From assembly GCA_039025295.1 (NCBI GenBank), contig JBCCOR010000071.1, positions 1 to 11,927 on the forward strand: 11,927 nucleotides of DNA, given 5' to 3'. Shown here piece by piece: positions 1 through 7,662 of this stretch. The notes beneath the pieces were generated by a model that searched no databases, was not told the origin of the DNA, and worked only from the letters and a program-made list of their open reading frames with translations. The first letter of the stretch is position 1; each line of letters opens with the position of its first letter. Source of the stretch: Acidobacteriota bacterium. GTDB lineage: Bacteria > Acidobacteriota > Thermoanaerobaculia > Multivoradales > J023. The position numbers and the translations under genes are program-made.

Positions 1-91
1 CCGCGCCGTCTTGACGGCGTCGGGCAGCGAAGCCGCGCCGTCTTGACGGCGTCGGGCAGCGAAGCCGCGCCGTTCTTACGGCGTCGGGCCC
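1..91. repeat. Tandem 32-bp repeat gaagccgcgccgtcttgacggcgtcgggcagc: one partial copy (1-28), one full copy (29-60) and one degenerate copy (61-91). Each unit contains a 7-2-7 inverted repeat cgccgtc-tt-gacggcg. The array is cut by the window edge.
   Basis: Read directly: 1-28 matches the last 28 nt of the unit. 29-60 is a full unit. 61-91 is a diverged copy (cgccgttcttacggcg, 6-bp arms). The arms cgccgtc and gacggcg are reverse complements. The array ends 19 bp before the ATG at 110. Confidence 0.8.
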
Positions 92-109
92 ACTGGTAGA
101 CTGGCGCGC

Positions 110-1183
110 ATGATCCACCGATATCGTGCTCGTCCGGCGGCATGGGCCGCATGCTCTCTCTCGATCCTGGGCCTCCTGGCCGCGCTGACGTTCACGCCGG
201 CCGTCTCCGCGCAGCCCGTGCGCCTGGCGATGGACGGCTTCGGCGGCAGCGTCGAGATCGAGATCCGCGGCCTGGCCGAGGAACGCGCGCGCGCGCTGGC
301 CGAGCGCGCCTTGGCCGAGATCCATCAGGTCGTCCAGCTGACCGATTCGTCGGGTCCGATCGTGCCGGCGCTCAACGCGCTGGCCGGGCAGCCGGCGCGC
401 ACGGTCGATCCGCGTCTGGCGCTGGCGCTCGAGCGCGCGCAGGGCTTCTGCGGCTGGTCGAACGGCGCCTACGGTCCGCTCGGCGGACGCCTGTATACGC
501 TGTGGGACGCGGGCGTCGATGCGCTGGCGTCGACCGATCCCGACACGCTGCTGGCGGCGGCGCAGAGCAGCGCCTGCACGGGTCTGCAGATCCGCAGCGA
601 GGCGACGGCGCCGGGCGCGCCGGGTCCGTTGCGGGCGACGGTGCAGCTGGCGCGCGACGCGCAGGTCGATCTGCGCGGCATCGCCCAGGGCCTGGCGGTC
701 GACCGGGCGATGGCGGTGCTGCGCGAGGCCGGCGTCACCAACGCGTGGGTCGGCGCGCCGCACGTCTGCCGCGCGCTCGGCCTCGGGCCCGAGGGCCTGG
801 GCTGGCTGGCGGTGCTGCCGTCGGTCGGCGAGATGGCCGAGGCGGCCGAGCCGGTCTGGCTGCGCGATCAGGCGCTCGCGTTCACGCCCGTCGACGGCCG
901 ACCGTGGCGGCGCGTGCACCAGCGCACGGGGCGCCCGACGCCGGGCGTGGCGATGGTCGTCACGGTCACCGAGCTGGCGATGGACGCTCAGGGTTTGGCG
1001 AGCAGCCTGCAGGCGCTCGGCCTGCAGCAGGGCTCGCTGCGCTTGGGCCAGCTCAAGCCCAAGCCGGCCGTCCTCTGGCTGCTGGGCGACGGCACCGGCA
1101 TGCCCGTGACCTCGCACTATCAGTGGGCCGAGCTGACCCATCAGGTGGAGACGGCCGGGCCCGAGAGCCTGGACATCCGCTGA
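110..1183 (+). CDS. apbE: ApbE/Ftp-family FAD:protein FMN transferase (periplasmic flavin transferase) with an N-terminal Sec signal peptide
   Basis: 357-aa ORF. N-terminus MIHRYRAR + hydrophobic stretch + AVSA/QP, typical of a signal peptide. ApbE family blocks are recognisable: SSGPIVPALNA (S..SELSRLN-like), GAYGPLGGRLYTLW (FDPTVGPL..LW-like), the family hallmark DLRGIAQGLAVDRAMAVLREAGVTNAWVGAPHV (LGGIAKGYAVD...ALVNLGGD), RRVHQRTGRP (HHIIDPRTGRP-like) and VTVT..AMDAQGLASSLQALG (VTV...ADALSTALFVLG-like). Confidence 0.75.
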   Translation: MIHRYRARPAAWAACSLSILGLLAALTFTPAVSAQPVRLAMDGFGGSVEIEIRGLAEERARALAERALAEIHQVVQLTDSSGPIVPALNALAGQPARTVDPRLALALERAQGFCGWSNGAYGPLGGRLYTLWDAGVDALASTDPDTLLAAAQSSACTGLQIRSEATAPGAPGPLRATVQLARDAQVDLRGIAQGLAVDRAMAVLREAGVTNAWVGAPHVCRALGLGPEGLGWLAVLPSVGEMAEAAEPVWLRDQALAFTPVDGRPWRRVHQRTGRPTPGVAMVVTVTELAMDAQGLASSLQALGLQQGSLRLGQLKPKPAVLWLLGDGTGMPVTSHYQWAELTHQVETAGPESLDIR

Positions 1184-1248
1184 AGATTGTTCGACGCCGC
1201 GCGACACAATTCGGTCCTGAATGCGTGTACGTACTGCAGCTCCCCGAA

Positions 1249-1902
1249 ATGCGTCTGGGGAGACTGCTCGTCGTCTTTCTCAAGGGCGGCAAGGTTCCCT
1301 TAGAGACCCGTTCGTTCGTCCAGGGCGTGCCGGCGTTCGCGTCGGTCCAGGTCAACTACCTGGCCTTCTGCCTCGCGCGCTGCGACCCCGCCGACTACCG
1401 CGATCGCGACGAGCCCCTGGCTGCGGCCCTCGTTGCCCTGATGCGCGCTGGGGACGGCGATCGCGTGCAGCAGAAGCTCGATGCGATCCGCCGCATCGCC
1501 GCGCTGACGAAGCAGCTCTCGAGCAAGCAGCGCTATCTGCTCCTGAAAACCATCGACACCTACCTGACGTTGCGCGGCCGAGACGCCGAGCGATACGCTG
1601 AAACCATGCAGGAACAGCCTGAGGAGATTCGCATCATGGCGCCCCAGACCTACGAGGAGTTCATCGCAGACGCTCTGCAGGAAGGCCGGCAGCTCGGCGT
1701 CCAGGAAGGCCGGCAGCTCGGCGTCTAGGAAGAGCGCGCACGGACGCGGATGCGGCTTCGGCGCCAGATCGAGCGCCGGTTCGGACCGCTGTCCGTCGAT
1801 CACCGCACGCGTCTCGACGCCATCGACGATCCCGACGCGCTCGATCGCGTGGCGGACCAGCTGCTCGACGCACCGTCGGTCGACGCCCTGCTGGGCGACT
1901 GA
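1249..1902 (+). pseudogene. Rpn/YhgA-family (PD-(D/E)XK recombination-promoting nuclease / transposase_31-like) C-terminal remnant including a DUF4351-like tail. It lacks the N-terminal nuclease domain and is interrupted by an in-frame TAG at 1726-1728.
   Basis: From ATG 1249 the frame gives ...QTYEEFIADALQEGRQLGVQEGRQLGV*. This is the Gln/Glu/Gly-rich repeat region characteristic of Rpn/YhgA C-termini. Read through the TAG, the same frame continues EERARTRMRLRRQIERRFGPLSVDHRTRLDAIDDPDALDRVADQLLDAPSVDALLGD* (stop 1900-1902). That matches the DUF4351 pattern (L..l.rRFG.l.......L......d.L..l...LL.a.sl..lL). There is no room upstream for the approx. 200-aa PD-(D/E)XK domain, because apbE ends at 1183. 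Confidence 0.55.
1678..1725 (+). repeat. Perfect 24-bp tandem duplication caggaaggccggcagctcggcgtc x2 (encodes QEGRQLGV x2), immediately followed by a TAG stop
   Basis: 1678-1701 and 1702-1725 are identical. TAG follows at 1726-1728. Confidence 0.9.
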
Positions 1903-1905
1903 GCG

Positions 1906-4900
1906 CTACTCGCCCAGCGAACGCGTGTCGATCTTGCGCAGCGCCTCGACCAGATCGCTCAGCTGATCGATCTCGCGCAGCGCACGATCGAGCTGATCGC
2001 GCAGGCCGCGGTCGTCGACCGACGCCGTCTTGAGACGCCGGTCGATGCCGCGGACGAGCTCGATCATCTGGTCGCCGACCTGGCGCCCCAGGCGCTCGAG
2101 CAGCTGCAGCACCGACGGACTCAGCACCTGGACCACACGCGGGCCCTGGGCAGCCTTCGCCAGCGCGCCGAGGGTCGCGTCGAGGCGGTCGAGATAGGGC
2201 GCGATCGGCGCATCGCCGTCGGCGCGTGCGGCCGACGGCACCGGCGGCACCGGCGACGCGGGCGCGGGCGCGGGCGGCACCGGCGCGGGTGGATCCGGGA
2301 CCGCCGGCGGACGCGCGACGATGTCGGCCAGCTGATCGAACACCGGACGCAGCGAAACGCCCAGACCGCGCGCCAGCGCGCCGGCCAGGGCGTCTGCGTC
2401 GAACGATGCAGCGGCCACAGCAGCCGGCGCGTCCGCACGCTGGGCCGCGCTCGCCTGGAGCGCCTCGACCACCATCCGCAGCTGCGCGGCGTTCTGCGCC
2501 TGCGACGCCTGCAGCGCCTCTGCGCGCGCCGCGTCGGCGTCGGCGTCCGCGTCGCCGTCCGTCGACGCGATCTGCGCCTGGCGCGCCGTCTCGATCGCCT
2601 CGCCGATCTGGCCCAGGCGATCGCCGAGCAGGCCGACCTGACCGATCAGCCGCGCCGCCGGATCGTCGTCGTCGCCGCCCATCGCCTGCACGCGCGCGAA
2701 GCCGCGCTTGATCTCGCGCCAGCGCGCCGCCTGCGCGTCGGTCATCGTGCCGCGCAGTTCGGCCAGCTTGAGCAGGTTGGCCTCGGCGCCGGTCGTCAAC
2801 GTCTGCGCCTCGCCGCGGTAGTGGTCGTCGAGCAGGGCCGCGCGCTCGGCGTCGTTCATCGCCGGCACGAGCTTCTCGACCAGCTTGTTCATGTTGCGGT
2901 AGCTGCCCTGCAGCTGGAAGCGCGGCTCGGTGCGGAAGGCGTCGGCCTGGGCGGCCGACTCGATGTAGGTCTGGTTGACCTGCAGCAGCACCGTGCGACA
3001 CGCCAGGGCGTGGCGCAGCACCGCCACCATCTCGTCGATCGCGGCGCCGCCGAGCGCCTCGGCCAGCGGACCGACGTCGACTTCCTCGCCCGCCGCGCGC
3101 CGGATCAGCAGGCGCGCATCCTCGGGATCGCGCGCCGCCAAAGGCGCCAGCACCGCGTTCGAGGTCAGGCTGTTCTCGACGTAGCTGAGCGCGAAGAGAT
3201 GCTCGCGGCCGGCCAGCATGTCGCCGAGGTTGTAGGTGTCGGCGCGGTTGGCGAGCATGTCGGGAATCTGAAAAGCCTCGCCGGCCTCGGTGTAGGGATT
3301 GCCGGCCATGCACACCGCGAAGCGCTTGCCGCGCAGGTCGTAGGTGCGCGTGCGACCGCGCCACACGCCCTCGATGCGTCGCTGGGCGTCGCACAGGCTG
3401 ATGAATTTCTGCAGCAGCTCGGGATGGGTGTGCTGGATGTCGTCGAGATAGAGCAGCACGTTGTTGCCCATCTCGAGCGCCAGGCCGATCTTCTCGACCT
3501 CCTGGCGCGCGGTGGCGTTGGGCGCCTCGGCCGGATCGAGGGAGACGACACCGTGGCCCAGCGCCGGGCCGTTGACCTTGACGAAAACCAGGCCGAGGCG
3601 CTGGGCGACGTATTCCATCAGCGTCGTCTTGCCGTAGCCGGGCGGTGAGATCAGGAGCAGCAGGCCCATCTGGTCGGTGCGCCGATCGGCGCCGACCGCG
3701 CCCATCTGCTTGGCCAGGTTGTCGCCGATCAGCGGCAGATAGACCTCGTCGATCAGCCGGTTGCGGACGAACGCGCCCATCACCTTGGGCTCGAGCTCAC
3801 CGAGCCGCAGGCGCGCGGTCTCGGCCTCGAGCAGATCGTGGCGGCGGCGCTGAAAGGCGCGGAAGGCCGGCACGTCGCGGCGCTCGAAGCCGTCGAGGCG
3901 GGCGGTGAAGGTGTCGAGGCGCAGCGACAGCGCGCCCTGACGCACGCGCGCGTGCTGGCCCAGGAGGCCGGTGATGCGCGCGTCGACCCGCGCCGACACC
4001 GTCTCCCACGCGCCGCGTCCGTGTACCAGCAGCTGCGCGACCGCCTCGGCGCGCGCCGCCGCGCGCGGATCCTCGGCTTCGTCGTCGGCGTCGCCATCGT
4101 CGGACGCCGGGCGACTCGCGTCGAGATAGGCGCCGATCCAGGCGTCGGCGAGGGCGTAGCGCGCGCCGAGGACGTCGTCGAGGGCGCGCAGATCGTCGTC
4201 GAGATCGAGCCAGCCGCGCGCGGTGTGCTGCTGCAGATGGGCGCGCAGGCCGTCGAGCAGCTGCGCCGCCTCGCCGCCGACGGTCAGGCGGCCGCCCTGG
4301 GTCGAGTGGCTGGGATCGTGCGCCAGCTCGTCGACCAGCCACGCCGCCGCCAGCGGCGCGTGGTCATCGAGCGGCAGCTGGGCGTCGCGGGCGAAGCGGT
4401 CCATGATCGTCGTCAGCTCGTCGCGCAGGGCGATGCGGGCCGCGCCCGCGCCGAAGGTCTCGGCCAGCCGACCCAGGCTGCGCGCGCGCCGCTGCCACAG
4501 CGCGCGCGCGGTGTGATCGGGATAGAAGGTCCAAAACAGGCTGCCGAGCGCGCGCGCCTCGGCCGGCTGGGCCAGGCGCGCCGCGTTGGTGGCCAGGCCG
4601 TGCAGCGCCTCGAGAATGCGCGCCGCGTCGTGATCGTGGACGCCGCGCGCGTAGCCTTCGTCGTAGCGCGCCGACGCCGCGCGGCGCGCAAGCTCCTCGA
4701 TGTCCGCGCGCTCGAGGGTCGTCGCGCCGCCCTGCCGGCGGTGCGCGCCGAAGAGCTGCCAGGCGAGGAATTCGGCGCGGTAGACGGCGTCGTTCTCCGA
4801 CGGATAGACCATGTCCCACACCGGGCGCGCGACGTCGAGAAAGTCGTCGCCGTCGGCCAGGCTCGACGCCACCGGCGCGCGGTAGTCGGTGCCGGTGAGC

Positions 4901-7662
4901 TGGAAGACCAGCGTGCGCGCGTCGCCGTCGCCCTGCGGCACGACGGTCAGGGCGACCGGCCGCGTGTTGACGCTGAAGCGATGGCGGCCGAGGCGCAGGG
5001 TCGGGCCGCTCTCGGCGTCGCCGTCGTCGAAGAGATCGCGGCGGTCGCGCAGGCCGCGGGCGGCCTCGTCGCGCGCGGTCTTGAGCCGGCCCTCGAGCTC
5101 GTCGGCCTGCACCGCCTCGCCCAGCGTGCGCAGCTCCTCGGCCAGATCGCGCAGCTTGGTGACCATCGGATCGGCGGCGAAGTAGGCCAGCAGCGCGTCG
5201 CCGTCGTCGATCTGCCCGCCGCGGCGGACGATGCCCTCGAGCACGCGGTCGGCGGCCGATGCCAGGCGCGCCGCCTTGCGCTGGCGCGCGTCGACCAGGC
5301 CCTGGCGCTTGGTGCTGAACGCCTCGTAGATGTCCTCGCGCTTGGTGGCGAGCTTGTCGGCGAAGTCGTCGTCGAGATCGGCGAAGCGCGTTTCGAGCGA
5401 CTCGAGGCGCAGCATGAGCTTCGCCAGCTGCGCGTCGCAGCCCTCGGGCGTGTCGGCGACCGCGAGCGCCGCGCCGACGCCCTGCGACAGCAGCGCGTAC
5501 TGCGCGCCGAACTCGGCCGCGCCTTCCTGCGCCGCCAGCGCCCGACGCGCGGCCTCGAAGCGCGCGCGCACCCGGTTGACCGACGACAGCACCTCGGCGA
5601 CGGTTTCGAGAATCCGCGTGCGCACGGTCGGATCGTCGACGTCGAGACCGTCGAGCACCTCGGTGAGCAGCTCGAGGCCGGCGGCCGCGTCGTCGAGGGC
5701 CTCGCCCACGGGCGCGGCGTCGGCGGTGCGGGTCAGGCCGTCGATCGACGCGTCGAGCGCGGCCAGGCGCGCGCGGTAGGGCGCGAGCGCGTCGTCGCCG
5801 AGCAGGTACGACGCGGCGTGCTCGGTGACGCCGGCCTCGGCCTCGGCGACCGACGCCGCCAGCGCCTCGATGCGGCCCGCGTCGGCGAAGCGCATCTCTT
5901 TGAGGCCGAGCACGTGGCCGCGATGGCGGCGCAGCCGGCCGAGCGCGCCGACGACGTCGTCGACCGCGGTCCAGCCGGCCGGATCGAGCCGGCGCTGGAT
6001 CTCGCCGAAGGTGCCCTCGGCCTCGCGCAGGGCGGCGGCGGCCCGGCGGCGGACCTCGGCGGTGCGCTCGTAGGCCGCGACCATCTCCTCGGCCGCGTCG
6101 CGCACGGCGCGGATCGGCGTCTGCAGATCGCCGACCACGTCGTGATCGAGCCAGAGATAGACGTCGAGCGCGCGCGTGGCGTTGCGGATCAGGTCCTCGA
6201 ACGGCCCGGCGCCGGCGTCGGCGGACGCGCCGGTGGCGGCCTGCGCCATGCTCAGGGCGTCGCTGATGCCGCGCACCAGCTCGGCGTTGCCGATCACCTC
6301 GAGATGGCTGCCGGTCGACGGCGCCGCCGCCGCGTGCTCGTCGCTGACGTAGGGCGTGCGCCACACCTGCAGCGCGTGCACCCGCGTCGGCTCGGCGCTG
6401 TCGGCGCGGAAGAGCGCCATCAGGCCGTCGTCGAAGAGGCTGTAGCCGCTGCTGCGCAGCGGGTTTTGCACGCTGCGGCGGATCAGGTTGTACGACAGGA
6501 GCAGCATGCGGCCGGCCGCGGGCGCGCGGAAGAGATAGAGCACGTCCTCGCCGTTGGGTGCGCGGATCGTGCGCTTGAACGCCAGGTCCGACGCGTCGAC
6601 GCCGTCGAAGACCTTGGTCTCGCCGCTCTGCAGATAGTAGCCACCCGGGAAGAGGATGCCGTGGTCCTCGGGCAGCTGCACGCACGCGCGGCCGATCGCG
6701 TCGATCCGGCGCACGTCGCGGGTGCGGATGTTGAACACCAGGTAGCGCCAGGTCTCCTCGCGGTAGGGCCGGATCTTGAGCAGGATCAGCGTCCCGAGCT
6801 TGGCGTAGAGGATCTCGCCGTCGTCGAGCGCCTGGTTGGCGTCGTCGACGTCCTCGCGGTAGATGCCGAGGCCGTCCTCGGTGTTGTCCTCGACCTTGAC
6901 CGTGAGATCGCCGCCGACGGTCTCGACGAAGACCTCGTCGAGGATGTTGACGTGCGGATGCCGTCCGAGGACGTAGTCGTCGCGGCCGGTCGCGACCCAG
7001 TCGAAATCGTGGCTCGGCGGCAGCACGTGCTCGCGCTCGCCGCGGTTGTCGAGATACGACACGCCGCCGTCGGGCGCGAGCGCCCAGCGGAAGACGCGCT
7101 GGTCGGTGAGCGCGCGACCGGTCTGGAAGATCATCAGCAGCCGGCCGTCGGTGTTGCGCAGCTGCAGCAGGCGGGCGTCCTTGTAGTAGCGGTAGAGCTC
7201 CTCGAAGTCTTTGACGAAGCCCGGATCGCGCAGGAAGTTCTGCGGCGATTCGGCCGGCACGCGCTCGAAGCGGTACGCCTCGCCGCCGGCCTCGTCGTCG
7301 CCGTCGTCGGGACGCGCAAAGGCGTGCAGGCTGAAGACGTCGCCGACGTGGACCTGGCGCTTGAGGCCGAGCACGACGTTGTAGCCGAAGAGCAGATGCC
7401 CGTCGACGGCGACGATGTCGCGCGGCACGCAGTTGTTTTCGGTGCGGATGCGCGCGCTGCCGGCCAGCGCCAGCTCGCCGCCGCCGAAGAGATCGAGGCG
7501 CTGCTGGTTGAGCGCGTCGGCGCGTTCGCGCAGCGTCTCGGCGTGGCTGCGCAGGCGCTCGCGCAGCAGGTCGAAGGTGCCGCGATCGATCGCCGCCGGC
7601 GCGTCCGCGTCGGACGGCGTCGCGTCGGACGGGACCGCGTTGGGTCGGTTGGCGTCCGCCAT
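1906..7662 (-). CDS. Giant (1918 aa) multidomain protein with a C-proximal AAA_5/MoxR-type AAA+ ATPase module. It is translationally coupled downstream of a flotillin-like gene. Function unknown.
   Basis: Single 5.76-kb ORF. ATG 7660-7662 (complement) lies 13 nt after the flotillin stop. The Walker A ISPPGYGKTTLMEY (aa approx. 1338-1351, nt approx. 3610-3651) was verified in the DNA: revcomp of 3621-3644 is ccgcccggctacggcaagacgacg. Walker B is NNVLLYLDDIQHT (aa approx. 1401-1413). The sensor-1-like motif FAVCMAGNPYTE is typical of AAA_5 (MoxR/McrB/midasin-type). The N-terminal approx. 450 aa are beta-rich (YLVFNIRTRD, GILFPGGYYLQSGETKVFDG). Aa approx. 450-1330 are acidic and helical. A Pro-rich linker PPAVPDPPAPVPPAPAPASPVPPVPS (nt approx. 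2233-2310) is followed by a approx. 100-aa helical C-terminus. The codon and amino-acid composition is coherent, unlike the Arg-rich alternate frames. Confidence 0.85.
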   Translation of the reverse strand: MADANRPNAVPSDATPSDADAPAAIDRGTFDLLRERLRSHAETLRERADALNQQRLDLFGGGELALAGSARIRTENNCVPRDIVAVDGHLLFGYNVVLGLKRQVHVGDVFSLHAFARPDDGDDEAGGEAYRFERVPAESPQNFLRDPGFVKDFEELYRYYKDARLLQLRNTDGRLLMIFQTGRALTDQRVFRWALAPDGGVSYLDNRGEREHVLPPSHDFDWVATGRDDYVLGRHPHVNILDEVFVETVGGDLTVKVEDNTEDGLGIYREDVDDANQALDDGEILYAKLGTLILLKIRPYREETWRYLVFNIRTRDVRRIDAIGRACVQLPEDHGILFPGGYYLQSGETKVFDGVDASDLAFKRTIRAPNGEDVLYLFRAPAAGRMLLLSYNLIRRSVQNPLRSSGYSLFDDGLMALFRADSAEPTRVHALQVWRTPYVSDEHAAAAPSTGSHLEVIGNAELVRGISDALSMAQAATGASADAGAGPFEDLIRNATRALDVYLWLDHDVVGDLQTPIRAVRDAAEEMVAAYERTAEVRRRAAAALREAEGTFGEIQRRLDPAGWTAVDDVVGALGRLRRHRGHVLGLKEMRFADAGRIEALAASVAEAEAGVTEHAASYLLGDDALAPYRARLAALDASIDGLTRTADAAPVGEALDDAAAGLELLTEVLDGLDVDDPTVRTRILETVAEVLSSVNRVRARFEAARRALAAQEGAAEFGAQYALLSQGVGAALAVADTPEGCDAQLAKLMLRLESLETRFADLDDDFADKLATKREDIYEAFSTKRQGLVDARQRKAARLASAADRVLEGIVRRGGQIDDGDALLAYFAADPMVTKLRDLAEELRTLGEAVQADELEGRLKTARDEAARGLRDRRDLFDDGDAESGPTLRLGRHRFSVNTRPVALTVVPQGDGDARTLVFQLTGTDYRAPVASSLADGDDFLDVARPVWDMVYPSENDAVYRAEFLAWQLFGAHRRQGGATTLERADIEELARRAASARYDEGYARGVHDHDAARILEALHGLATNAARLAQPAEARALGSLFWTFYPDHTARALWQRRARSLGRLAETFGAGAARIALRDELTTIMDRFARDAQLPLDDHAPLAAAWLVDELAHDPSHSTQGGRLTVGGEAAQLLDGLRAHLQQHTARGWLDLDDDLRALDDVLGARYALADAWIGAYLDASRPASDDGDADDEAEDPRAAARAEAVAQLLVHGRGAWETVSARVDARITGLLGQHARVRQGALSLRLDTFTARLDGFERRDVPAFRAFQRRRHDLLEAETARLRLGELEPKVMGAFVRNRLIDEVYLPLIGDNLAKQMGAVGADRRTDQMGLLLLISPPGYGKTTLMEYVAQRLGLVFVKVNGPALGHGVVSLDPAEAPNATARQEVEKIGLALEMGNNVLLYLDDIQHTHPELLQKFISLCDAQRRIEGVWRGRTRTYDLRGKRFAVCMAGNPYTEAGEAFQIPDMLANRADTYNLGDMLAGREHLFALSYVENSLTSNAVLAPLAARDPEDARLLIRRAAGEEVDVGPLAEALGGAAIDEMVAVLRHALACRTVLLQVNQTYIESAAQADAFRTEPRFQLQGSYRNMNKLVEKLVPAMNDAERAALLDDHYRGEAQTLTTGAEANLLKLAELRGTMTDAQAARWREIKRGFARVQAMGGDDDDPAARLIGQVGLLGDRLGQIGEAIETARQAQIASTDGDADADADAARAEALQASQAQNAAQLRMVVEALQASAAQRADAPAAVAAASFDADALAGALARGLGVSLRPVFDQLADIVARPPAVPDPPAPVPPAPAPASPVPPVPSAARADGDAPIAPYLDRLDATLGALAKAAQGPRVVQVLSPSVLQLLERLGRQVGDQMIELVRGIDRRLKTASVDDRGLRDQLDRALREIDQLSDLVEALRKIDTRSLGE
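2982..3672 (-). other. AAA+ (AAA_5-like) ATPase module of the giant protein, approx. aa 1330-1560: Walker A GYGKTT, Walker B LLYLDD, sensor AGNP
   Basis: Motifs read in the translation, and Walker A confirmed in the nucleotide sequence at 3621-3644 (complement). Module boundaries are approximate. Confidence 0.65.

Follow-up and report, generated by a model that had tools for sequence, protein, structure and literature searches.

A giant DUF3686-family AAA+ ATPase encoded beside a flotillin-like SPFH gene in an Acidobacteriota bacterium

Introduction

At the inner membrane, an SPFH cage of HflK/HflC encloses the AAA+ protease FtsH. This pairing is referenced to Ma et al. 2022 in PMC10936438, which also cites work on SPFH proteins forming membrane cages and, in B. 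subtilis, recruiting PspA. A second combination of an AAA+ protein with a flotillin-like partner, the 'beta-propeller + coiled-coil + AAA+ ATPase' and its operon, was described in an earlier comparative-genomics study and tied to PspA-type membrane dynamics (Ravi et al. 2024, mSystems, PMC11237479). In our literature searches on the family, this was the one description found, together with no experiment on any member. Searches for DUF3686/PF12458, for 'DNA repair ATPase' with flotillin, and for YqiJ with YqiK and AAA+ returned nothing, and a paper on a P. aeruginosa SPFH protein left the ATPase unmentioned. Bacterial flotillin function and the regulation of flotillin assemblies are still unsettled. 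Here, we analyzed an 11,927-nucleotide stretch of DNA from an Acidobacteriota bacterium (hereafter, the window) that encodes a 1918-aa ATPase. The protein is a typical member of this known family, and the window extends the family by a single member, whose operon is reduced.

Results

Gene and family

The ATPase ORF had a GC3 of 0.94, typical of a true gene at the contig GC of 72%, and is real (Table 1). Its product was 100% identical to database protein P0001, 'MAG: DNA repair ATPase [Acidobacteriota bacterium]', and is a full-length, probably active member of the DUF3686 family. The protein, with a pI of 5.05, had neither a TM segment (maximum 19-aa hydropathy, 1.3) nor a recognized lipid-binding domain. 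Promoter and terminator scans at the ends of the operon found none of either.

The family combines Pfam DUF3686, DUF7902, and AAA, carries the NCBI name 'DNA repair ATPase', and was found in Acidobacteriota, Actinomycetota, Myxococcota, Deinococcota, Bacteroidota, and Gammaproteobacteria. Members also occurred on large plasmids, and a search of a phage collection returned no family copies. At E<1e-30, 343 clusters (50% identity) were recovered, with full-length members spanning 1590-2036 aa and always carrying the DUF3686 region at the N terminus. The 120 homologues listed shared 48-56% identity with the query over mostly 98-100% of its length (85-93% in the remainder), were 1630-2030 aa long, and nearly all had the same Pfam domain set. 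The architecture had been flagged as unusual in the first-pass annotation of this DNA; the layout is, however, fixed in this widely distributed family, is already catalogued as Pfam DUF3686/DUF7902, and was described by Ravi et al. It is the norm for the family and not an oddity.

Domain architecture

Two confident AlphaFold (AF2) models, one with a pLDDT of 88.6 and the other of 81.2, covered the N-terminal part (m6b22372fee33) and the C-half (mae78c4b3a814) and gave the order N-terminal helix, divergent beta-propeller, helical rod, alpha/beta domain, AAA+ module, variable linker, and three-helix tail. PF12458 (DUF3686) matched aa 44-502 over profile positions 2-447 of 448 (648 bits against a cutoff of 25, E=7.7e-195). 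Within this region, the model placed approximately 26 strands over aa 65-435, with pLDDT mostly >90 in the propeller, bearing out the beta-like N-terminal region noted earlier. When the propeller domain was searched against the PDB using Foldseek, most matches were beta-propellers, including sialidases, prolyl oligopeptidase, the LRRK2 WD40 domain, DDB1, and clathrin, at E values around 1e-4.

The stretch from aa 450 to 1330 had been read as a single, strongly acidic helical segment. Long helices were indeed modelled over aa 441-880, a rod of approximately 440 aa resembling spectrin/talin-like bundles and harbouring PF25472 (DUF7902), but aa 881-1290 formed a separate, mixed alpha/beta domain with no match in Pfam or the PDB. 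Nor did acidity set the stretch apart, its pI of 5.0 (net charge -38 over 881 aa) being the same as that of the whole protein. The alpha/beta domain contained an EGYxRGxHDxD loop in which the eight specified residues were invariant (alignment A2).

The linker between the AAA+ module and the tail was poorly conserved and ranged from 43 to 200 aa across homologues, with pLDDT <50 over aa 1744-1819. Both the Pro-rich spacer and the helical C terminus anticipated by the first-pass annotation were found. In being Pro-rich, this sequence stands apart from its homologues, and the feature is not conserved (14 Pro in a 25-aa window here; homologue median, 5). The tail helices corresponded to residues 941-957, 969-999, and 1005-1030 of the C-half model, and the tail aligned in 116 of the 120 closest homologues. 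Linker and tail are not features of the entire family, as actinobacterial orthologues (roughly 1670 aa) have no tail and stop at about aa 1690. For the window protein, the proposed layout was supported: a large non-ATPase platform at the N terminus (propeller, helical rod, and an extra domain) leads into the C-proximal AAA+ module, after which come the flexible linker and the helical tail.

AAA+ module

The AAA+ module was the most conserved portion of the protein (conservation 0.85-0.91). Walker A, Walker B, and the AGNP motif were located where the first-pass annotation had placed them, and their invariance across the 120 homologues listed (Table 1) indicates that the protein is not a pseudo-ATPase. 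The acidic pair of Walker B is Asp-Asp, not Asp-Glu, and hydrolysis may therefore proceed slowly, more as a switch than as a motor. Two arginines were assigned candidate roles, R1473 as an arginine finger from its position after sensor-1, and R1589 in the lid as a putative sensor-2 arginine. Two family motifs were used as patterns in the genome scan, LQGSYRNM being specific enough as a family pattern. A pre-sensor-1 (PS1) beta-hairpin, the strands of which spanned E549-554 and E557-562 of the C-half model, was situated between the post-Walker B helix and the sensor-1 strand; this hairpin and the beta2-alpha2 loop were among the best-conserved parts.

Foldseek searches with the AAA+ module ranked RuvB best, followed by MCM and then NorQ/CbbQ, with Clp also among the best matches. 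Sequence-based PDB searches were started from the single protein and from a profile of 100 family sequences; apart from a designed coiled coil, they gave matches to the P-loop only, those to p97 and Rix7 included. Likewise, PF00004 scored 26.7 bits over positions 1-38 of 131, the P-loop region only, and no full-length classical AAA match was obtained.

Table 1. Features of the ATPase gene and its upstream partner in the window. Residue numbers refer to the 1918-aa ATPase.
Feature	Positions	Strand	Residues	Basis or remark
DUF3686-family ATPase ('DNA repair ATPase'), whole gene	1906-7662	-	1-1918	1918 aa; beta-propeller / helical-rod / AAA+
C-terminal three-helix tail	1909-2202	-	1821-1918	Helices over aa 1821-1910, pLDDT ~75-80
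Variable low-confidence linker	2203-2637	-	1676-1820	Conservation 0.18-0.38; gap fraction up to 0.46
Pro-rich spacer, PPAVPDPPAPVPPAPAPASPVPPVPS	2233-2310	-	1785-1810	Within linker
AAA+ module, alpha/beta core and helical lid	2638-3792	-	1291-1675	Pfam AAA and AAA_5; Foldseek
LQGSYRNM, in lid	2890-2913	-	1584-1591	Invariant or ≥90% conserved columns (alignment A2)
PDMLANRAD	3238-3264	-	1467-1475	Invariant in 120 homologues
Sensor-1 strand, CMAGNPY	3292-3312	-	1451-1457	AGNP at 1453-1456; A, G, N, P, Y invariant in 120 homologues
PS1 beta-hairpin, RIEGVWRGRTRTYD, basic	3337-3378	-	1429-1442	Model; W1434 invariant
Walker B, LLYLDDIQH	3430-3456	-	1403-1411	D1407, D1408, Q1410, H1411 invariant in 120 homologues
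Walker A, SPPGYGKTT	3622-3648	-	1339-1347	Invariant in 120 homologues; final T in 119 of 120
Conserved alpha/beta domain	3793-5022	-	881-1290	Model mae78c4b3a814
EGYxRGxHDxD loop	4627-4659	-	1002-1012	In alpha/beta domain
Helical rod, long helices	5023-6342	-	441-880	Spectrin/talin-like bundles
PF25472 (DUF7902)	5542-5793	-	624-707	92.7 bits against a cutoff of 26, E=1.6e-26
Divergent beta-propeller-like domain, core of DUF3686	6343-7482	-	61-440	Pfam, model, and Foldseek
N-terminal long helix	7486-7611	-	18-59	AF2 model m6b22372fee33, H18-59
SPFH/Band-7 flotillin-like protein, long coiled-coil region	7676-9646	-		656 aa; upstream operon partner

Genomic context

The most informative clue, overlooked in the first-pass annotation, is the SPFH gene, the stop codon of which is separated from the downstream ATPase start codon by 13 nt. 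Pfam matched Band_7 (E=1.2e-9) when the N-terminal 233 aa of the SPFH protein were scanned alone, and returned nothing at E<=0.01 for the entire ORF. An SPFH orthologue was encoded directly upstream and on the same strand at all 77 genome loci with upstream DNA and in six of six further cases (83/83 in total). The intergenic gap in related loci had a median of 7 nt, with many 4-nt overlaps. A third gene, encoding a small YqiJ/YuaF-type (DUF1449) membrane protein, was present at 70 of 80 loci and usually preceded the SPFH gene. This protein had no Pfam match in the related loci and was recognized as YqiJ/DUF1449-like by homology to an annotated Hymenobacter protein. An HMM built from 65 loci was run over the 80 loci and the window, and by this HMM the window lacks the YqiJ-like gene. 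Outside the two- or three-gene unit the flanks were not conserved, consisting mostly of housekeeping or metabolic genes. Across the 80 loci, the conserved neighbours were all membrane-associated and included no DNA-metabolism gene and no VWA protein. In P. fluorescens pQBR103 and Hymenobacter, genes for PspA together with a CesT/Tir chaperone or YjfI adjoin the family operon; the CesT/Tir-PspA dyad was absent from the window (an 11.9-kb contig) and from the 80 genome loci.

The window SPFH copy has no N-terminal TM helix, which is present in its homologues. A mis-started SPFH gene was rejected on two grounds: AAGGAGGAG precedes the ATG at 9646 by a short distance, and the DNA farther upstream encodes no hydrophobic segment in any frame. 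The module in the window is a reduced version, with a TM-less SPFH protein and no YqiJ-like gene, and may therefore work differently or be decaying. A past deletion may have removed the 5' end of the operon. The window contains a gene of RHS/YD toxin type, as well as a remnant resembling Rpn/DUF4351; the side where YqiJ would lie is occupied by a divergent RHS gene.

Discussion

The best explanation of the locus, which we regard as moderately probable, is that the DUF3686-family ATPase, whose gene shares a two-gene operon with that of the flotillin-like SPFH protein, is an ATP-driven remodeller that acts at the membrane, upon flotillin assemblies or together with them. Judged from gene context alone, remodelling at the membrane, and not DNA repair, is its most likely role. 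The AAA+ modules would assemble into a ring, like the PS1-hairpin AAA+ proteins RuvB, MCM, and NorQ, whilst the long N-terminal arms, each a rod tipped by a propeller, may dock on an oligomeric flotillin scaffold at the inner membrane face. ATP turnover would remodel, disassemble, or load the scaffold or its clients. The module may form part of a membrane-maintenance or envelope-stress system, in some lineages together with YqiJ/YuaF and PspA, and the tethered helical tail, found in some clades only, is a candidate auto-regulatory or partner-binding element. A bolder proposal, which we put forward tentatively as possible rather than probable, is that the family is a dedicated assembly/disassembly machine for flotillin cages, in which an AAA+ ring with six propeller-tipped arms grips SPFH proteins and the TM-less SPFH protein of the window is a soluble, recruitable variant. 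Analogues would be Vps4 acting on ESCRT-III and NSF acting on SNAREs. If true, flotillin microdomains would be actively remodelled in many bacteria.

Other roles were weighed against membrane remodelling. The propeller and helical leg might instead self-assemble with flotillin into a scaffold or coat-like sub-membrane lattice, with the Asp-Asp AAA+ module serving as a nucleotide switch that governs assembly and disassembly and not as a substrate-threading motor. This is unlikely: TM-scores to clathrin were very low (0.12 and 0.08), confining the likeness to layout, the helices form long bundles and not an alpha-solenoid, and the high conservation of the pore-facing PS1 hairpin and beta2-alpha2 loop fits substrate engagement. 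Giant ATPases are also common in defence systems, and the large plasmids carrying family members, together with the RHS/YD toxin-type gene and Rpn/DUF4351-like remnant in the window, would suit a giant NTPase sensor/effector operating with a membrane protein in anti-phage or inter-bacterial conflict. Such a function is quite improbable, given that PADLOC (PADLOC-DB v2) returned P-loop noise only (IetA, mad8; E >0.002) and no match for the SPFH protein, that neither an effector domain nor phage copies were found, that the flanks are unconserved and mostly housekeeping or metabolic, and that the genes linked to the family are those of PspA stress and not of defence.

The remaining alternatives concern the AAA+ core. 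NCBI and Pfam name the family 'DNA repair ATPase' or 'ATPase involved in DNA repair', and a nucleic-acid substrate is compatible with the basic PS1 hairpin and with the identity of the closest solved AAA+ structures, the DNA motors RuvB and MCM. Yet the RuvB equivalogs scored far below threshold and only over the P-loop region (NF000868, 22.9 bits against a cutoff of 282; TIGR00635, 20.3 against 299), no nuclease, helicase, or DNA-binding domain was detected by Pfam, NCBIfam, or PDB profile searches, the sole conserved neighbours are membrane-associated, and literature searches gave no paper backing the name. A DNA repair or DNA-translocating ATPase is hence very improbable, and the database label is a mislabel without support. 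The first-pass annotation had framed the protein as a MoxR/AAA_5-type chaperone ATPase with an unusual domain order, and some sources do call homologues 'MoxR-like ATPase'. Although PF07728 (AAA_5) matched over core positions 2-125 of 139, its score only just passed the threshold (25.1 bits; cutoff, 22), and roughly half of the homologues have no AAA_5 on record; NorQ and CbbQ were among the Foldseek matches, but RuvB outranked every MoxR structure. Moreover, the model has no helix-2 beta-hairpin insert, beta2 and alpha2 being joined by just a loop and a short helix (aa 1365-1382), and no VWA/MIDAS partner was found among the genes of the window or the conserved neighbours at the 80 loci. We consider this framing the least probable of all.

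What the data establish is the order of the domains, motifs for ATP binding and hydrolysis that do not vary, and, across at least six phyla, a strict linkage of the gene to SPFH. The ATPase gene sits beside a flotillin gene in every case examined, which makes the protein an obvious candidate for an energy-dependent regulator of flotillin scaffolds and a candidate link to PspA/ESCRT-III-type membrane repair. The confident domain models and the conserved sites K1345, D1407/D1408, R1473, R1589, and the EGYxRGxHDxD loop could guide experiments.

Among known systems, the MoxR family (RavA, NorQ, CbbQ) has a weak structural likeness to, and possibly an AAA_5-type core in common with, the window ATPase, which is about six times larger, carries its ATPase module C-proximally, and differs in the missing insert and VWA partner. 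RuvB, the best structural match to the AAA+ core and lid, shares the PS1 hairpin; identity is only 15-20% with a TM-score of ~0.36 to the target, and RuvA or RuvC context is missing. Vps4/ESCRT-III and the bacterial ESCRT-III homologue PspA, which some family operons include, share the concept of an AAA+ protein remodelling a membrane-bound polymer. Unlike Vps4, the window ATPase has no MIT domain, and its AAA core does not belong to the classical type found in Vps4. As in HflK/HflC-FtsH, an SPFH-family scaffold is paired with an AAA+ ATPase, a pairing known here from gene linkage. In contrast to FtsH, a classical-clade AAA protein with TM helices and a protease domain, the window ATPase has neither of these and combines a PS1-hairpin core with a 1290-aa N-terminal arm. 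Closest of all are the operons of Ravi et al. 2024 (CesT/Tir-PspA / YqiJ-YuaF / band-7-flotillin). Unlike these, the window has no YqiJ/YuaF gene, a TM-less SPFH protein, and no PspA within the 11.9-kb contig. The domains follow one another as in those operons, the flotillin-like partner upstream is shared, and the window matches their 'abbreviated operon' class (PMC11237479).

Domain architecture of the ATPase family

The ORF at 1906-7662 (-), encoding 1918 aa in a window of 72% GC, has a GC3 of 0.94, as is typical for a genuine gene on this contig. Its product, hereafter the ATPase, was 100% identical to the database protein 'MAG: DNA repair ATPase [Acidobacteriota bacterium]'. Pfam assigned DUF3686 ('ATPase involved in DNA repair') to aa 44-502 (E=7.7e-195) and DUF7902 to aa 624-707, together with weak AAA and AAA_5 matches at aa 1335-1458; NCBIfam and PADLOC scans of the ATPase matched nothing beyond the P-loop region. 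Against a set of 5.8 billion proteins the ATPase had thousands of hits, the best 120 of which were 1630 to 2030 aa long and 48 to 56% identical, most with 98 to 100% query coverage and nearly all with the same Pfam set. When aa 1-900 was used as the query, an exhaustive search retrieved 343 representative clusters at E<1e-30, and in full-length members (1590 to 2036 aa) this region was always N-terminal. Conservation was unbroken from ~aa 30 to ~aa 1680, with its maximum in the AAA+ module (0.85-0.91). The polypeptide up to ~aa 1680 is essentially a single conserved family, the kind of whole-protein match that the first-pass annotation had named as grounds against its reading. Hence, the layout with a C-proximal ATPase module, considered unusual in that annotation, is nothing exceptional, being the standard, already described layout of a widespread, uncharacterised family.

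Two AlphaFold2 models, built from 100-sequence alignments, covered aa 1-900 (pLDDT 88.6) and aa 881-1918 (pLDDT 81.2). The Walker A, Walker B and sensor-1 motifs, Pro-rich spacer, and helical tail all lie where the first-pass annotation had placed them. The strongly acidic helical block it described at aa 450-1330 survived only in part; aa 441-880 consists entirely of long helices, but aa 881-1290 forms a separate mixed alpha/beta domain, and the pI of the block (5.0) hardly differs from that of the whole protein (5.05). The mixed domain matched no family or solved structure in Pfam and PDB profile searches, and it carries an EGYxRGxHDxD loop, all 8 specified residues of which are invariant and which could be a metal site, a ligand site, or an interface. 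The linker (aa 1680-1830) varies in both length and sequence and the tail is moderately conserved. Both are clade-specific: 116 of the 120 closest homologues have them and the ~1670-aa actinobacterial orthologues do not. The Pro-richness reported for the linker is peculiar to this sequence.

Features of the ATPase, in residue order
Feature	Residues (aa)	Window position	Basis
Long helix	18-59		AlphaFold2 model
~26 beta-strands	65-435		AlphaFold2 model
Long helices, up to 58 residues each	441-877		AlphaFold2 model
Mixed alpha/beta domain	881-1290		AlphaFold2 model
EGYxRGxHDxD loop	1002-1012	4627-4659	
AAA+ alpha/beta core with PS1 hairpin	after 1290		AlphaFold2 model
Walker A, SPPGYGKTT	1339-1347		
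Walker B, LLYLDDIQH	1403-1411	3430-3456	
PS1 hairpin	1429-1442	3337-3378	AlphaFold2 model
Sensor-1, CMAGNPY	1451-1457		
Helical lid	to ~1670		AlphaFold2 model
Low-confidence stretch	~1744-1819		AlphaFold2 model
Pro-rich spacer	1785-1810		
Helical C-terminal tail	1821-1918		
Three helices (tail)	1821-1910		AlphaFold2 model

The three ATPase motifs and PDMLANRAD, in which R1473 is a candidate arginine finger, were invariant in 120 of the best 120 homologues, and the degenerate motifs expected of a pseudo-ATPase were therefore not seen. The Walker B acidic pair is Asp-Asp (LDDIQH) and not Asp-Glu, again across all 120, and might confer slow, switch-like hydrolysis. Between the post-Walker B helix and the sensor-1 strand, the model has a strongly basic beta-hairpin, the pre-sensor-1 (PS1) hairpin (RIEGVWRGRTRTYD). 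The best structural match for the C-terminal half was RuvB (E=5e-5), followed by MCM, NorQ/CbbQ, and ClpA/B/C (15 to 20% identity), and its model lacks a helix-2 beta-hairpin. On modeled structure, these observations assign the protein to the PS1-hairpin group of AAA+ proteins, not specifically to the MoxR family, weakening the earlier MoxR framing.

Linkage to a flotillin-like gene

The ATPase gene is obligately linked to a flotillin-like gene. The window's copy is preceded, at a distance of 13 nt, by a gene at 7676-9646 (-) whose SPFH/Band-7 product includes a long coiled-coil region. Patterns specific to the family, scanned against a single genome of each species, yielded at least 584 confirmed loci. 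The 80 that were kept represent Actinomycetota (among them Streptomyces, Nonomuraea, and Micromonospora), Myxococcota, Acidobacteriota, a Thiotrichaceae MAG, and a Clostridia MAG. An SPFH orthologue (44-63% identity) lay directly upstream on the same strand in all 77 loci with upstream DNA, at a median gap of 7 nt, with many pairs sharing a 4-nt overlap. Upstream of SPFH, 70 of the 80 loci carried a third conserved gene, whose product, a small polytopic membrane protein, shares homology with one from Hymenobacter that bears the annotation DUF1449 (YqiJ family); no further conserved neighbors were found among the 80. Plasmid records (tblastn) added Proteus, Pseudomonas fluorescens pQBR103, Deinococcus, Hymenobacter, Halomonas, Vibrio, and Photobacterium, and the order YqiJ-like, SPFH, ATPase held in all six extra loci examined. 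In two replicons distant from each other, pQBR103 (L081, 971-14175) and one of Hymenobacter (L082, 4553-13866), the three-gene unit directly follows PspA/IM30 and YjfI or CesT/Tir chaperone genes, and on pQBR103 it is also preceded by DUF2491, DUF350, DUF1190, and glutathionylspermidine-synthase-like genes. No member of the ATPase family was found in a phage collection.

The window's SPFH protein begins right at the SPFH domain, missing the N-terminal TM helix of ~76 orthologues, with AAGGAGGAG shortly 5' of its ATG at 9646. No YqiJ-like gene was found within the window; GC drops to 0.63-0.65 around 9000-10500, and a divergent RHS/YD-repeat gene (from ~9879; 9879-11927, +) runs off the contig end. 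Given that the two closest relatives examined, both Acidobacteriota MAGs, retain the three-gene unit, one with an SPFH gene also called without the TM helix, the window may hold a reduced or a 5'-truncated variant of the module.

At the other end, the product of 110-1183 (+) belongs to the ApbE family (FAD:protein FMN transferase-like) and its N terminus resembles that of a signal-bearing protein or lipoprotein; neither this gene nor the RHS/YD-repeat gene is conserved beside the operon in other genomes. Convergent with the ATPase gene is a DUF4351/Rpn-like remnant (1237-1902, +), its DUF4351 match, on the last 50 codons, being weak and below the Pfam cutoff (E=9e-4). Its frame is broken by an in-frame TAG at 1726-1728, where copy three of a 24-bp tandem repeat (1678-1732) has TAG in place of CAG. 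A 32-bp tandem repeat, CCGCGCCGTCTTGACGGCGTCGGGCAGCGAAG (2.8 copies, 96% identity), occupies 1-89 at the contig edge and may extend past it.

Proposed role and alternatives

The domain order is established, and the residues for nucleotide binding and hydrolysis are intact and invariant. We infer that the AAA+ modules would assemble as a ring, that propeller-tipped helical arms would engage an oligomeric SPFH scaffold at the membrane, and that ATP turnover would remodel this scaffold or its clients; the earlier general idea of a platform joined to a remodeling ATPase and a tethered tail is reasonable. The linkage is asymmetric. Flotillin-YqiJ pairs without the ATPase are common (Ravi et al. 2024, PMC11237479), whereas the ATPase was never observed without a flotillin gene among the loci examined here, a pattern consistent with an accessory factor that works on flotillin or through it.

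No membrane-binding element was found in the ATPase sequence, however, and the closest structures are DNA motors. The Asp-Asp Walker B and basic PS1 hairpin matter for the choice between a motor, a switch, and a nucleic-acid binder. Because of these caveats, four rivals to the proposed remodeling role are retained: a scaffold or coat switched by nucleotide, a motor acting on DNA, an anti-phage or inter-bacterial conflict system, and a MoxR-type chaperone. The 'DNA repair' label itself appears to be a legacy name without support. Literature searches found no experimental work on any family member. The family is an attractive target for experiments.

The same arrangement was described by Ravi et al. 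(2024, mSystems, PMC11237479), whose operon comprises CesT/Tir-PspA and three further genes, including a YqiJ/YuaF-type 3TM protein, and whose supplement gives the architecture as 'Betapropeller+Coiled-coil+AAA-ATPase'. In that study, abbreviated operons without PspA were more widespread than those with it. In its proposed remodeling role, the ATPase would be part of an envelope maintenance module related to PspA systems.
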